From: Pseudogymnoascus verrucosus
Lineage: Eukaryota
DNA length: 20,000 nt
Direction: 5' to 3' (one strand)
NCBI GenBank assembly: GCA_001662655.1
Contig: KV460231.1
A model generated the notes under the pieces. The model was not told the origin of the DNA. It made no database searches and worked only from the letters and a program-made list of their open reading frames with translations. The translations under genes and the position numbers were made by a program. Shown here piece by piece: positions 1 to 7,018 of the stretch (the first letter of the stretch is position 1; each line of letters opens with the position of its first letter).

Positions 1-1618
1 CATACGCGGCCATCAGTTCCTCGTAGCCTTCCATTCTCATTGAGCCGCCGACGATCTCTCCGACGCCGGGCATGAGGACGTCGACGCTCTCGGTGACACG
101 CGGGTCGTTAGGGTCACGCTTCATGTAGAAAGCCTTGATAGCGGTAGGGAAGTGCGTGAGGAGGATAGGCAAGTTAATGATATCCGTCATCCTTCTTTCC
201 GCAGCCTCCGCAATATCGTCGCCGAAGACGTGGGGGTTGCCCTCCTCGTTGAGAATAGGGGGATCTTGGGCGTTGAGCCAGTCAATGGCGTCAGAGTAGC
301 GCATGCGCTTGAACGGGTGCGCGGGCGCCTTGAAGTCAGGGTTGAGCTCCTTGATGTATCCCGCGATCTCGGGGTCGGCGAGGATGGTCTCGATGACGGT
401 GCCGATCATCAGCTCGATGTGATCGAGGAGGTCGTCGAACTCGATGAAGTCCAGCTCGGCCTCGACGTGGGCGTACTCGGCCAAGTGGCGACGGGTGAGG
501 GATTTCTCGGCGCGGAAACTCTTCTCGATGCAGTAGACGTTGCCGAGGCTCTGGATGGCGGTCTCGAGGTAGAGTTGGGAGGACTGGGTGAGGTAGGCTT
601 TCTCGTCGTAGTAGGGGAGCTCGAAGAGGGTGGAGCCGCCTTCGACTTGGGTCTGGACGAGGGCTGGGGGGCTGACTTTGGTGAATTTAAGGTCCTTGTA
701 GGCTTTTGCGAAGGCCCATTCGACGGCGGAGCGGACTTTCATGACGGAGGAGGCGTTGTCGCCGCGGAGGACGAGGTGTCTGTTATCCAGCATCTGGGCG
801 TCCCACATGTTCTTCTCTGAGGAAACCTTGTTGGTGATGGCATCGTCGCCGCTGGGCGCGGAGCCAATAACCTTGTAGTAGTCGACCTGGAGCTCACGGC
901 CATCTGGAGCAGTGGCTCCGTCTGGAAGCTTGCGCATCTCACCGAACAGGGCAATCGAGGTGCCTTGGGCGAAGGTCAGAGCATCGTAGGTCTTGGTCAG
1001 GTCGCCGGTAAGGACACACTGCAGGTGACCGTAACCGTCGATCAGGGTTATAAATGTAGCCTGCTTCTGCTGTCTCAATCTGTGAATGCGTCCACAAATC
1101 TTGACACGTGCTCCCTTGACATCCCCCTCTCCCAGCTTGATATTCTTATCGCCGGTTGTAGTTCTCACAGCCTTTGGCAGCGACGCATCTTCCGTGAGGA
1201 CGATCTTCTTCGCGTCCTCAAGGTTGTTGAGGCGTTGCTGCTCCTTCTCAGCCTCGGCAGCGGCGATCTGCTGCTGCTTAACCAACTTCTTCTTGTGCTG
1301 GTCGAGCGCATTCTGGGCCTTCTTCACGGCGCTCTTCGCCGGCTCCTTCCACGCCAATCGCTCAGATGGGTCACCATCCGCGCTCACGGCGCCCGTAACA
1401 GACGCGCGCTGGAGATATGACTTGTTCTCCGCGCCGCCGTGCTGGATGAATGCATAACCCAAAGATTTGTACGGCTTTGCCTCGGAGCCATCTGCGCCCT
1501 CCTCGTCCTTGCCAGCGTCCAAGTCAATGTAGATCGCGTTGGTAGAATCGGTCTGTGCGCTTCTGGTCGGCAGAATCTCCTCGATCTTGGCCTTGACGGC
1601 GTCGAGAGTCGAAGCCAT
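1..1618 (-). CDS. DED81: Cytoplasmic asparaginyl-tRNA synthetase (class IIb), 3' end beyond the window edge
   Basis: Absent from the ORF track because no stop lies inside the window. ATG at 1618 reads MASTLDAVKAKIEEILP...IYIDLDAGKDEEGADGSEAKPYKSL. Further on are OB-fold IDGYGHLQCVL, TQVEGGSTLF, AYLTQSSQLYLE, motif 2 FRAEKSLTRRHLAEYAHVEAE and VDVLMPGVGEIVGGSMR. The start frame matches the frame at the window edge, so no intron is needed (~539 codons visible). Confidence 0.96.
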   Translation of the reverse strand, partial: MASTLDAVKAKIEEILPTRSAQTDSTNAIYIDLDAGKDEEGADGSEAKPYKSLGYAFIQHGGAENKSYLQRASVTGAVSADGDPSERLAWKEPAKSAVKKAQNALDQHKKKLVKQQQIAAAEAEKEQQRLNNLEDAKKIVLTEDASLPKAVRTTTGDKNIKLGEGDVKGARVKICGRIHRLRQQKQATFITLIDGYGHLQCVLTGDLTKTYDALTFAQGTSIALFGEMRKLPDGATAPDGRELQVDYYKVIGSAPSGDDAITNKVSSEKNMWDAQMLDNRHLVLRGDNASSVMKVRSAVEWAFAKAYKDLKFTKVSPPALVQTQVEGGSTLFELPYYDEKAYLTQSSQLYLETAIQSLGNVYCIEKSFRAEKSLTRRHLAEYAHVEAELDFIEFDDLLDHIELMIGTVIETILADPEIAGYIKELNPDFKAPAHPFKRMRYSDAIDWLNAQDPPILNEEGNPHVFGDDIAEAAERRMTDIINLPILLTHFPTAIKAFYMKRDPNDPRVTESVDVLMPGVGEIVGGSMRMEGYEELMAAY

Positions 1619-1893: not shown

Positions 1894-4800
1894 ATGAACA
1901 AAGCAATTGTTGTGTCTCCAAGACGACTTTTAATCTCTGCTGTCAACCTATCTAGTCGGCTTTTGGTTCTTAGGTCTTCCAGCACAATGCCTCCGAAACA
2001 GGCAACGCTTGGGTATGTAAAGCCTTCGCAGACTACGTTGGGGTGCGTGGAGAGCTATGAGCTGTCCAACTCCCCGGTTTTGGATATTGTTTCTGACGCT
2101 GCGGTTATACAGGAGGTTTTTTGGGGGTTCCAGTAGTGCGAATCCAGCTCCTCCGAAACAAACAACTCTCTCGTTTTCCTCGAAATCCACGAATGAATCC
2201 AAGGTCAAGACACCAGTGAAGAAAGAGGAGCTTGAGGATGAGGATACACCAAATGAGAACCGAACCCCTAAAAGTGATGAAGATGCTGTGAACGAGCAGC
2301 TGGCCTCGGAGTTGAAGGCTAGCCCTTCACCCAATGGCAAAGGTGCGTTTCCCCAACTCGGCTTGGCCATTATGGAGTGCAGGACCCCAATTAATTCAAT
2401 TCAGACTCCAAGAAACGGATTAGAGACGAGGCTCTGGAAGATTTCAAGAGTGAAGCTGCAGCATCCGACGAATCAAAAAAGCTAAAGGAGGAACAAGAGG
2501 AGGAAGAGGATGAGGAACCCGTCTTGAAACGATCGCGTCGAAGCGGCCAGGAATCTACGGTGTCGAAGAACGCATCCGAAACCAAGCCAAATAAGAAAGA
2601 TACTGCAGCAGCGAATAAGAAAGGCACGGGAAAGGCAGCTACTAAGGGTATCAAGAAGGAGATAGTCGAGATTGAAGACGATAAACCTCTCGCCAAGCCA
2701 GAGAGGAAAGCATCAGCCACCCCCGAAGCCAGCTCAGAAGTAGAGGAGGAGATTGAAGAAGATGAGGAGGATGAGAAGCCAGAATTGGCTGCGAAAACCC
2801 GAGAGAAGATACAAACAACCCTGAAGTCGAATAGCAAGGACCCATATCCAGACTGGAAACCGGGAGAGCCAGTACCATACGCAGCACTCTGCACGACCTT
2901 TTCGCTCATTGAGATGACGACGAAACGTTTAATCATTGCTGCGCATTGCTCTCTCTTCTTGCGTCAAGTCCTCCGCCTCACACCCGACGATCTCTTACCG
3001 ACTGTTCTCCTCATGATCAACAAACTGGCGGCAGACTATGCTGGCATTGAGTTGGGTATTGGCGAGTCGCTCATAATGAAAGCTATCGGCGAAGCCACCG
3101 GCCGAAGTCTGGCAGTCATCAAGCAGGATCAAAAGGAGATCGGCGATTTAGGCCTGGTGGCTGTCAAGAGCAGGTCTAACCAGCCGACCATGTACAAACC
3201 CAAGCCGCTGACGGTCAGGGGTATTCACAAGTCTCTGTTGAATATTGCAGTGATGCAGGGCAATGGAGCACAGACCCGCAAAGTGGACGGTATCAAGAAA
3301 CTGCTCTCTGCTGCTGATAGCGGAGGCGGTAAGGTCGATCTTGCAAAGGACAAGGGAGGCCCAAGTGAAGCCAAGTTCATCGTCAGGTTTCTGGAGGGTA
3401 AACTAAGACTCGGCCTGGCTGAGAAGACGGTCTTGGTATCGCTGGCTCAGGCCATGGTCTGCCACGAGACCGAGAGTAAAGGAAGAGATAAGGTGCCTTC
3501 TACGGATCAGTTGGCTAAGGGGGAGCAAGTCCTGAAAGCCGTGTACAGGTAAGTCAATTCTTCCCACGTGTAAGATCCAGACTCTAATCTATCAAATAGT
3601 GAACTCCCCAGTTACGATGTAATTATCCCAGCTATGCTCCAGCATGGCATCTTCAACCTCCGAGACAACTGCAAGCTCCAGCCAGGAGTACCTCTCAAAC
3701 CCATGTTGGCAAAGCCAACCAAGGCCATTACAGAAGTCCTTGATCGATTCGAAGGCCAGACATTCACTTGCGAGTACAAATACGATGGCGAAAGAGCCCA
3801 GATTCATTACGTATCCAAAGACTCCGAGACAAAATACCAAAGCAGCGTTCCCGCAGCAGCCAAGGGAACAGCAGGTGGACTCGCAGCCATCTTCTCGCGC
3901 AACTCGGAGGACCTATCCAAGAAATACCCCGATATCTTAGAGAAGCTCGGCACGTGGGTCAAGCCGGAGACCAAGAGCTTCGTCCTCGACTGCGAAACCG
4001 TAGCCTGGGACACGGTAGAGAAGAAAGTGCTCCCCTTCCAGCAACTCATGACGCGCAAGAAGAAGGACGTCAAAACCGAAGACGTCAAAGTCAAAGTCTG
4101 CGTCTTCGCCTTCGACCTCCTCTTCCTCAACGGCGAAGCCGTCGTCGAAAAGCCCCTCCGGGAGCGCCGCTCCCTCCTGCACACCGCCTTCACCCCCGTC
4201 GAGGGCGAATTCGCCTTCGCCACCTCCATGAACGGCCAGGAAATCGACGACATCCAAACCTTCCTCGACGAGTCCGTCAAGGCCTCCTGCGAGGGCCTCA
4301 TGGTCAAGATGCTCGACGGCGTCGAGTCCGGCTACGAGCCCAGCAAGCGCTCCCGCAACTGGCTCAAGATCAAGAAGGACTACCTCGCCGGCATCGGGGA
4401 CTCGCTCGACCTCGTCGTCCTCGGCGCTTACCACGGAAAGGGGAAGCGAACCAGCGTGTATGGCGCGTTCTTGCTAGCCTGTTATAATCCCTCCACCGAG
4501 CGCTACGAAACAGTCTGCAACATCGGCACGGGCTTCAGCGAAGAGGTCCTCGAGACCCTGCACGCCCAACTCTCCGACACCGTCATCGATCGCCCCAAAC
4601 CCTTCTACGAGCACAGCAAGGTCAACGCGCACCAACCCGACGTGTGGTTCGAGCCGCGCTATGTGTGGGAGGTGCGCACGGCGGACTTGACGCTCAGCCC
4701 GAAGTATCGCGCTGGGTATAAGGAGGGCATCGCCGGGGATGCGGAGAAGGGGGTTAGTTTGAGGTTTCCGAGGTTTATTAAGATTAGGGATGATAAGAAG

Positions 4801-4899
4801 GTTGATGAGGCGACGAGTAGTAGACAGATTGCGGAGATGTATAGGAGGCAGGAGAGTGTTAGTAAGGGGCCCGCGGCGGATGATGATTTTGAGTATTAG
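1894..4899 (+). CDS. CDC9: DNA ligase I (Cdc9/Cdc17); exons 1894 or 1987-2042 (alt. donor after 2012), 2113-2342, 2405-3548, 3600-4899; ~909 aa from ATG 1987
   Basis: Adenylation motif EYKYDGERAQIH, plus FVLDCE, VFAFDLLFLNG, CEGLMVK, WLKIKKDY and SLRFPRFIKIRDDK. DNA-binding domain GEPVPYAAL...LEGKLRLG. Introns 2043-2112 (GTGCGT..CTGAC..CAG), 2343-2404 (GTGCGT..CAG) and 3549-3599 (GTAAGT..CTAAT..TAG) all preserve frame; the last gives VY-S-ELPSYD. Confidence 0.97.
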
Positions 4900-5247: not shown

Positions 5248-7018
5248 TCATTGACCAATACACCCCCCCCTCTCCTTCCTCTCCTTCACCTCCTTCCCCC
5301 CCTTCAATCCCATCCCCTCTTTCTCCCTCACCCCATTCCCCTCCTTCTCCCCCTCCCCCTCCTCCTCCCCCCCTTGTCTACCCAACCAACACCCCTCCCG
5401 CCCACCACCCTCCGCTCCTTTCGTCCCCTGATACCAACCCCCCCCCAACACCCCCTCCACCCTCCCCCACTCCCCCACCTTCCCAAGACTCTTAACATCC
5501 AAATCCCCCAACCTGGCCCTCAGCACCCCTTCCCCATCAGGTACAACAAGAAAGACTGTGACGTCGCGGAGTGTCATGGCGATTTGTAGGCCTTTGAGAG
5601 AGGTGGATGAGGAGGGGGAGGAGGGGGAGGAGAGGAGGTGTGAGACGCCGTATGGGTCGCAGGTTGTTTGGATGTGGCGGAGGTGGCGGAGGAGGGGGGA
5701 TGTTAGGGCCCAGGAGGTTAGGCGGCTGAGGGTGTGTAATTGTTCCGAGGTCGCGGCGGTGGGCGGTGTGTCGTTGTGGTTGGCATTGGGTACAACGTTT
5801 TGGGCAGCAGGTTTAGTACTCCCGTCCTCGACAACGCTACTGCCATTTTGGGTAATAGAGAGACTGGTGCTGTCAGTAGGAGCAGAAGCAGGTAACCCAA
5901 GCAACAACCCCGCAGCGCGTCGCACATCAGCAGGAGAGGAGGAAATCAGGTCCAGTGGACAGAAAGAGGGTTTTGAGATGCCTCGCTTGGCGTGGAGGGC
6001 GCAGGTGCGGCAGCGTTTTGAGCCGGGGGGGGCGGAGGGGGAGGGGGCGAGCCATTTGGGTTTGAATTGGATTAGGGTTGATGATGTTGCTGGGGGGGGT
6101 TGTTAGTTTTGTCTTTCGCTGTGTATATTAGACTGGGAGGGGGGAAGAGGGAGGAGAAAGGGGAGAGGGAGGAGAAAGGGGAGAGGGAGGAGAAAGGGGA
6201 GAGGGAGGAGAAAGGGGAGAGGGAGGAGAAAGGGGAGAGGGAGGAGAAAGGGGAGAGGGTGGGAGGGGGAGAAGGAGGAAGGGGCAAGGGAGAAGGGAGA
6301 AGGGGGAACTGGAGAAGGGGGAAGTGGAGAAAGGGAGAAGGAAAAGCAGACATACGAGGCGACATATCCGTAATAAGAAGCGCATGCGGATCATCCGCCA
6401 AATAAACCCCATGCCTCTGCCTCGGCCGCGGCGAATCTGCGGATGCCTCCTCGGCGGCTCGCAGAGCAGCGTTGAGAGTCTGGATTAGGTGCGATGAACC
6501 GAGGGAGACGAGACGGATGTCGATTAGGTCTTCAGCGGGGAAGAGCGGCGCGATGGAGGTGCGGAAGGCGATGTGGGCGTCGAGTGTGGGCGTGGTGGTG
6601 GGGAGGTCTTTGCGGAAGCGGAGGAGTTTGCCTGGTGGGGGGTGGTGTTAGGTTGTTGTTTGATTTGTGGGGGGAGGGGAAATTTGGGGGAGGTGAGGGG
6701 GGTAGTGGTGAGAGATGGGGGGTAATGGCTTCATTGTGTGAGCTCTGCCCAGGGGTGTAGGAAAGCTCCAGGACAAGGGCGTGGGATGCTCAAAAAGGGG
6801 AATCACGTGATAGTTCGACTGAATCTGAGAAAGAACATACCGTGCCAGGGATTAGTTGCTGTGTCCTCTCCTTTCTCCTGTATATCGCCATGTTGGGGCG
6901 TGTTACTCTGCGGAGGGACGTTTATAGAGTAAACCACGTTTGCAGCGCCCTCGCTCAGGTAGGTGGCCGAGATGTTGCTGGGTAGCTCCAGGATCGTGTC
7001 TGGTGGGAAGTCCATCAT
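5248..7018 (-). CDS. IPK1: Inositol-pentakisphosphate 2-kinase; exons 7018-6841, 6631-6356, 6089-5248; ~431 aa
   Basis: Family motifs YLSEGAANVVY, GKLLRFRK, QFKPKWLAPSPSAP..RCRTCA, FCPLDL, AMTLRDVTVF and GDLDVK. Introns 6840-6632 and 6355-6090 start GTATGT, have CTAAC branch points, end in CAG, and are both phase 1 with the frame restored. Confidence 0.9.
6146..6259. repeat. 18-bp pure-purine minisatellite (AGAGGGAGGAGAAAGGGG) x6.3 in IPK1 intron 2
   Basis: Six identical tandem copies plus a partial seventh. Shows up as (REEKGE)6 in the spurious ORF 6100-6405. Confidence 0.95.

Follow-up and report, generated by a model that had tools for sequence, protein, structure and literature searches.

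The DNA ligase I of Saccharomyces cerevisiae, Cdc9, carries an N-terminal PIP box of the form KQATLxxFF and is made from two starts, one for the mitochondrial and one for the nuclear form. The residues ahead of its glutamine lie on the PCNA C-terminus and, in the sequence KPKQATLARFF, Lys37 to Ala39 pair with it (PMC1865074, accessible text). The gene analysed here belongs to the same enzyme family and has the same kind of N-terminal box, with yeast-like residues ahead of the glutamine in the short form and, probably, two starts. However, the accessible text of the Cdc9 paper describes a single PIP box and alternative initiation only, whereas in the present gene the box is split by an intron that has two donors.

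Four other systems resemble this intron in part. The SKI7/HBS1 gene shows an ancient and conserved choice between two sites of one intron that yields two proteins; there, the alternative sites are 3' sites and their use adds a large region with separate functions, whereas in LIG1 the alternative site is a 5' site, half of an 8-residue motif is swapped and 10 residues are added (PMC3597508, accessible text). The same text calls conserved, proteome-diversifying alternative splicing rare in fungi. It also discusses S. cerevisiae SRC1, in which two nearby donors likewise belong to one fungal intron; only one SRC1 isoform is shown there to be functional, whereas in LIG1 frame and motif survive in both products and coding selection acts on the stretch between the donors. 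Stwintrons are also unusual Pezizomycotina introns with extra splice signals (PMC6616335, accessible text). A stwintron was considered for LIG1 and rejected: both donors are intact, none of the splice elements is interrupted by an internal intron, and no donor or acceptor is restored when the 70-nt intron is excised. Finally, ultraconserved pseudo-5' splice sites are conserved donor-like motifs within introns that, according to the accessible text of PMC13100119, are never spliced, whereas the second LIG1 donor is in frame, has a coding-constrained flank and is used in at least one contig-derived protein. A literature search by titles and abstract starts, outside subscription papers and supplements, returned no earlier description of the LIG1 double donor. 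Enzyme, PIP box and dual start have all been described in yeast; the conserved alternative 5' splice event of LIG1 is real and seems to be undescribed.

Two donors of LIG1 intron 1 complete a PIP box

The window, that is the whole stretch of 20,000 nucleotides of Pseudogymnoascus verrucosus DNA that was analysed (contig KV460231.1), contains a LIG1/CDC9 gene whose product carries the DNA ligase I domains PF04675 (6e-46), PF01068 (3e-65) and PF04679 (4e-25; Pfam). Its nearest proteins are Pseudogymnoascus ligases (97% identity), and the P. verrucosus protein P0121 is identical to it in the three coding pieces compared. Intron 1 falls within the PIP box, the QxxL half being encoded in exon 1 and the RFF half in exon 2. 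Two donors, at 2013 and 2043, share the acceptor at 2112; both are in frame and in phase 2, they define introns of 100 and 70 nt, and each joins its own QxxL half to the one RFF half of exon 2. With the slash marking the exon-intron border, module 1 reads CAG GCA ACG CTT GG/GTATGT (GT at 2013) and module 2 reads CAG ACT ACG TTG GG/GTGCGT (GT at 2043). From the two window junctions, the short product starts with MPPKQATLG-RFF and the long product with MPPKQATLGYVKPSQTTLG-RFF; the corresponding boxes, QATLGRFF and QATLGYVKPSQTTLGRFF, both conform to the PIP consensus Q-x-x-(L/I/M/V)-x-x-F-F. The intron therefore has two donors, one acceptor and a preserved frame, as an alternative 5' splice site does. 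Gene models exist in Pseudogymnoascus for both products (P0121 short, P0009 long). The first-pass annotation had proposed that each donor completes a PIP box, and this is confirmed in the window, where both junctions give QxxL/I/VxxFF. The features are listed in Table 1.

Table 1. Features of the LIG1 gene and its first intron, in window coordinates.
Feature	Position	Strand	Evidence
Upstream in-frame ATG and 31-codon Arg/Ser/Leu-rich extension	1894..1986	+	Without stop; equals the P0121 N-terminus; T at -3, weak context
Second ATG, with A at -3, opening the exon 1 core MPPKQATLG; PIP first half, module 1	1987..2012	+	Sequence; resembles yeast Cdc9 KPKQATLARFF
Donor 1 GTATGT, the strong and major site; translated as G-Tyr-Val in the long form	2013..2018	+	Used in 4/4 RNA-type runs of a close relative; GTAYGT in 58/58 lineages
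(G)YVKPSQTTLG, alternative segment of 30 nt, intronic in the short and exonic in the long form; module 2 QTTLG at 2029-2042	2013..2042	+	Coding-type conservation; kept in spliced P0480
Donor 2 GTGCGT, weak, minor	2043..2048	+	At +30 or +27 in 101/101 loci (98 GT, 3 GC)
Branch-point-like CTGAC (2093-2097) and common acceptor CAG ending at 2112 (AG 2111-2112)	2093..2112	+	Sequence
Exon 2 start G/AGG TTT TTT, PIP second half RFF, common to both forms	2113..2122	+	Junction of the relative continues AGG TTT TTT
Third Q-x-x-L-x-F module, QTTLSF, in exon 2 of both isoforms	2159..2176	+	Pattern in 55/58 lineages; function putative
Intron 2, 62 nt, donor GTGCGT	2343..2404	+	Spliced out in 4/4 runs of the relative
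Intron 3, 51 nt, donor GTAAGT	3549..3599	+	Spliced out in 4/4 runs of the relative; sequence
Remaining LIG1: DNA-binding, adenylation and OB domains	2405..4899	+	PF04675, PF01068, PF04679

The explanation that best covers the observations, and that we consider highly probable, is that intron 1 of LIG1 has a conserved and functional alternative 5' splice site. With the intron splitting the PIP box, the FF pair of exon 2 would serve whichever half-motif precedes it. Use of the strong donor 1 would give the major protein, with a yeast-like N-terminal box xPKQATLG[K/R]FF, and use of the weak donor 2 would keep 30 (or 27) further bases and give a minor or condition-dependent protein. In the latter, a half-motif that is typically [K/R]x[S/G/A]-QxT[L/I]x would complete the PIP box, and module 1 would turn into QATLGYV(K/R). 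This last sequence has Tyr at position 6, Val at 7 and Lys/Arg at 8 and, as aromatic residues are absent at positions 7 and 8, it is a non-canonical PIP box. The design is unusual in that two half-motifs vie for the single FF half on the far side of the intron, and the box is kept whichever of them is joined to it. The unspliced reading frame of the window ends in a stop at 2134-2136; intron retention was rejected as a functional form, the lengths of the long intron being spread 17/19/22 over the three frames.

The two 20-nt modules share 14 of their 20 bases (binomial p 3e-5, uncorrected for the coding and splice constraints common to both). This identity makes the suggested tandem duplication of half-motif and donor plausible, but the event is too old to trace. 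That the splice arrangement is more than coincidence is indicated mainly by conservation, the second donor being in frame in all 101 genomic loci (window counted).

The second donor is conserved in frame and weaker than the first

Metagenome sequences were scanned with a pattern that covered exon 1 only, from the ATG to the GG of the glycine codon, and specified nothing 3' of it; the GG ahead of donor 1 belonged to the pattern and TAYGT did not. The scan yielded 108 loci, 100 of them genomic, 4 spliced and 4 unrelated. The last four were removed as non-LIG1, being without a donor or FF exon and without a ligase match (two had little downstream DNA). Of the genomic loci, 39 were too short for the ligase domain and were accepted from the layout of exon 1, intron and xFF. 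Dereplication on the intron sequence reduced the 101 genomic loci, window counted, to 58 lineages. The pattern picks up only lineages whose exon 1 is not divergent, and Eurotiomycetes and early-branching Pezizomycotina lie outside the survey.

A second in-frame donor behind a Q-x-x-(L/I/V) run was present in 101 of 101 genomic loci (window counted), at a spacing of +30 in 91 and +27 in 10, with the dinucleotide GT in 98 and GC in 3. For both junctions, exon 2 provided xFF in 57 of the 58 lineages and xFL in the remaining one. A tree of ligase domains (40 loci and 22 stored proteins) placed the loci in the company of Leotiomycetes, Sordariomycetes, Pleosporales, Hortaea and Icmadophila; the loci group with the Leotio-, Sordario-, Dothideo- and Lecanoromycetes. 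The 27-nt spacing appeared in two distinct clades of the tree, and the spacing changes only by 3 nt. The double-donor arrangement is old and under selection. The GC donors (GCATGT, GCGGGT) occur in L036, L050 and L080 at +31, with position and frame kept. In the Logan protein P0016, which groups with Leotiomycetes, the double module is missing and the N-terminus has one box of another sequence, QMLLGSFF, possibly as a result of loss or replacement.

Donor 1 was exclusively GTATGT or GTACGT in the 58 lineages. GTAAGT and GTGAGT, which are common fungal donors, would read as stops in the long frame at this position; at intron 3, taken as a small control, GTAYGT occurred in 2 of 9 donors. The expectation that the donors, their in-frame spacing and the G-TAY-GT codons would be conserved was therefore borne out, GG/GTAYGT being found in 58/58 lineages. 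Donor 2 was weaker than donor 1 in every lineage, with a mean of 4.3 versus 6.0 matches to AG/GTAAGT. It is mostly GTGCG, with A at -3 in 31/58 lineages versus 6/58 at donor 1. The GTGCGT of the window is the same hexamer as the donor of intron 2 at 2343, and the homologous position is spliced in the relative described below. Donor 2 looks like a splice site that is retained yet weak.

Transcript-type sequences contain both junctions, in different species

A close relative, 90-95% alike, was the source of four runs, classed as RNA by automated guess only; every run yielded a single spliced contig, and the donor 1 junction was present in 4/4. The spliced metagenome contigs also had the short form in 4/4, and three of these equal genomic loci exactly over 60 exon bases. 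Among 39 full-length Logan/JGI/ENA proteins, 13 carried the module, 12 of them short and one long. The long junction was accordingly absent from 4/4 runs of the relative, 4/4 spliced metagenome contigs and 12/13 Logan/JGI proteins with the module, and it was found in 0 of the 12 matches among short contig-derived proteins. As contigs retain the dominant path only, this absence means that the long junction is minor, not that it is missing.

The sole long protein, P0480 (Blumeria, Logan-only, 915 aa, two contigs of at most 3486 nt), is the long form carrying the presequence. It is near-identical to the Blumeria NCBI model P0251 and departs from it at the intron 2 boundary. We take P0480 as a transcript spliced at donor 2, read from the protein rather than from contig DNA. 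P0477, a short model from the same species, requires a real genomic intron. On this reading donor 2 is used in Blumeria, and in this powdery mildew the long form was abundant enough to be the assembled path. Each donor is therefore used in transcripts, as the first-pass annotation had supposed, though in different species: donor 1 in the relative and the metagenome, donor 2 in P0480. The choices are unequal: donor 2 is the weaker site in 58/58 lineages, and donor 1 dominates the RNA-type data. As to the four isoforms that two starts and two donors would allow, the long form with presequence in P0480 makes them plausible, but the full set is unproven in one organism. Taken together, these data indicate that the short form is the major one and that a genuine long form exists in one lineage or more. 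For P. verrucosus itself, we infer the use of donor 2 from its conservation.

Of 247 full-length proteins, 72 were long and 129 short, and 71 of the 72 long ones were gene models. Models alternate between the two forms within species, as in Botrytis cinerea, Seiridium and Metarhizium, and in two NCBI genomes, those of Diaporthe vaccinii and Monilinia laxa, both isoforms are annotated under one locus tag. RNA support for the D. vaccinii isoforms is not stated in the accessible text of PMC12060661, a paper that is not tied to that locus tag, and the annotation method for M. laxa was not found in the accessible texts of PMC8959702 and PMC6795239. In a profile search, 122 of 150 matches were genomic read-through, two were spliced long and a third, P0284, was recognised by eye, all three being NCBI models. 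In the supplement of a Magnaporthe splicing paper, the gene identifier looked up appeared only in a row on gene mapping, with no splice event. The double donor accounts for the 10-residue disagreement of fungal LIG1 models between and within species. In the public models P0006, P0227, P0257 and P0441, intron 1 is either translated through or spliced at the wrong places, and the published annotation of the LIG1 N-terminus is unreliable.

The segment between the donors evolves as protein code

The 30-nt segment evolves as protein code. It contained a stop in 0/58 lineages, versus 12/58 and 19/58 in the two 10-codon windows behind donor 2 (0 versus 19, Fisher p 7e-7; lineages non-independent), and its own two other frames contained stops in 21/58 and 10/58 lineages. 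The information per codon position was 1.07/1.41/0.44 bits in the segment versus 0.09/0.07/0.10 in the intron behind it. Pooled pN/pS was 0.35 for the segment, 0.93 for the intron behind and 0.28 where exon 2 begins (pairs non-independent), and the pS of the segment was 0.78, near saturation, as in the intron. Among the 54 lineages with 30-nt spacing, the Gln of module 2 is encoded by CAG in 41 and CAA in 13, its hydrophobic position is L/I/V in all 54, via nine codons, and a basic residue (K/R/H) follows YV in all 54, via 8 different codons. Across the 58 lineages, the alternative segment is thus under protein-level selection.

These data bear on two other readings of donor 2. The first, a neutral relic of an old duplication combined with noisy splicing and gene-predictor ambiguity, would fit the flipping of models within species and the 72 long and 129 short forms among the 247 full-length proteins. 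However, amino acids and donor persist although synonymous sites are near saturation (pS 0.78), and a relic would have decayed like the adjoining intron; the relic reading is therefore largely refuted and we regard it as most improbable. The second takes donor 2 for a conserved pseudo-5' splice site or other RNA element which, itself always unused, would serve only to regulate splicing, as the animal ultraconserved sites do. The weakness of donor 2 in 58/58 lineages, the dominance of the short junction and the precedent of PMC13100119 (accessible text) speak for it, but it leaves unexplained why third codon positions vary freely while the amino acids stay fixed, why stops are lacking and why indels are of 3 nt only. 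P0480, moreover, uses donor 2, and RNA structure over the window intron was no better than in shuffles (z -0.29). We consider this second reading very improbable. A second isoform that is real and selected is, in our estimation, very likely.

The long form may change how the ligase engages PCNA

The splice choice affects a core replication enzyme at the one short motif that recruits LIG1 to PCNA, in an N-terminal region that looks disordered. The long form may well alter the engagement of the ligase with PCNA. We favour such a change because P-P-K gives way to K-P-S directly ahead of the Gln, at the residues with which yeast Cdc9 zips onto the C-terminus of PCNA. By this analogy, tuning of PCNA engagement is our preferred purpose for the long form, at somewhat better than even chances. 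A related proposal, in which the long form would make up for a lacking beta-zipper, was abandoned, since yeast-like zipper residues are already present in the short form. Tuning of presequence cleavage, which the first-pass annotation had raised, was rejected as a purpose: we found no evidence for it, and the segment begins 9 residues after the second Met.

The same splicing might serve another purpose, with QATLGYV(K/R) as an extra site for a second PCNA pocket or for a partner (RFC, 9-1-1) and module 2 merely preserving the PIP box. The basic residue after YV, kept via 8 codons in 54/54 lineages, is more than the donor needs, and QATLGYV(K/R) has the Q-x-x-L-x-aromatic spacing of the conserved exon 2 module (QSKLSF/QTTLSF), a QxxLx[F/L] sequence present in 55/58 lineages. 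In P0019 the Tyr is replaced by Phe, and module 2 shows PIP-compatible drift (QTNITKFF, QSTVRKFF). On the other hand, Y-V is mostly set by the strongest donor that avoids a stop, the two modules are 10 residues apart, probably too near for docking on two PCNA subunits simultaneously, and no partner is known for QATLGYV. Such an extra site is possible, if doubtful.

Less plausible is a checkpoint-kinase switch of PCNA docking through an S/T-Q site bordering the PIP box, in place of the K-Q of the short form. S/T-Q is the ATR/ATM-type consensus, and S or T precedes the Gln in 44/58 lineages; however, G, A or P is found there in 14/58, and a small residue may be a structural preference. We judge this switch improbable.

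Returning to the tuning of PCNA engagement, we tentatively propose a regulated splice switch in the clamp-binding motif of the replicative ligase, across much of Pezizomycotina. The ratio between the donors, with donor 2 deliberately weak, would set the proportion of one- and two-module N-termini that differ in PCNA affinity or partners, and this ratio could shift with the cell cycle, damage or lifestyle. Two peptides and two point mutants would make a small testable system for the way in which PIP flanks tune clamp engagement.

Upstream start and neighbourhood of LIG1

The reading frame upstream of the second ATG is open for at least 25 codons in 51 of 53 loci, versus 27 and 28 in the other frames, and it contains an in-frame upstream ATG in 30/53. 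RNA-type contigs of the relative start 5' of the position of ATG 1894. A purine is present at -3 of the second ATG in 58/58 lineages, and T at -3 of the upstream ATG of the window. The two ATGs, via leaky scanning, would probably combine with the splice choice. The 1894..1986 extension is likely a mitochondrial presequence, with targeting assumed by analogy to yeast CDC9 (PMC1865074, accessible text). In 23 of 53 lineages the upstream frame is open, for up to about 120 codons, without an in-frame ATG (e.g. L004, L005, L034 and L050), hinting at non-AUG starts for the mitochondrial form there. The nuclear form begins with M-P-P-K (1987-1998 in the window) or M-A-P-K in nearly all lineages, and with MSSS in Blumeria; an M-P-P-K or M-A-P-K start is a consensus for N-terminal methylation.

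The divergent gene upstream (44-1618, minus strand) encodes an asparaginyl-tRNA synthetase (PF20917, PF01336) and starts about 280 nt from the first LIG1 ATG; 7 of the 57 other lineages, most of them Leotiomycete-like, have this neighbour too. The promoter common to both genes (1621-1990) contains four CGCG-core sites (TCGCGG, ACGCGC and two TCGCGA), counted without a control, which we take to resemble MCB cell-cycle boxes. In or near the gene 3' of LIG1, a tandem repeat of about 18 nt extends over 6132-6390 and is GERGEG-like in one frame.
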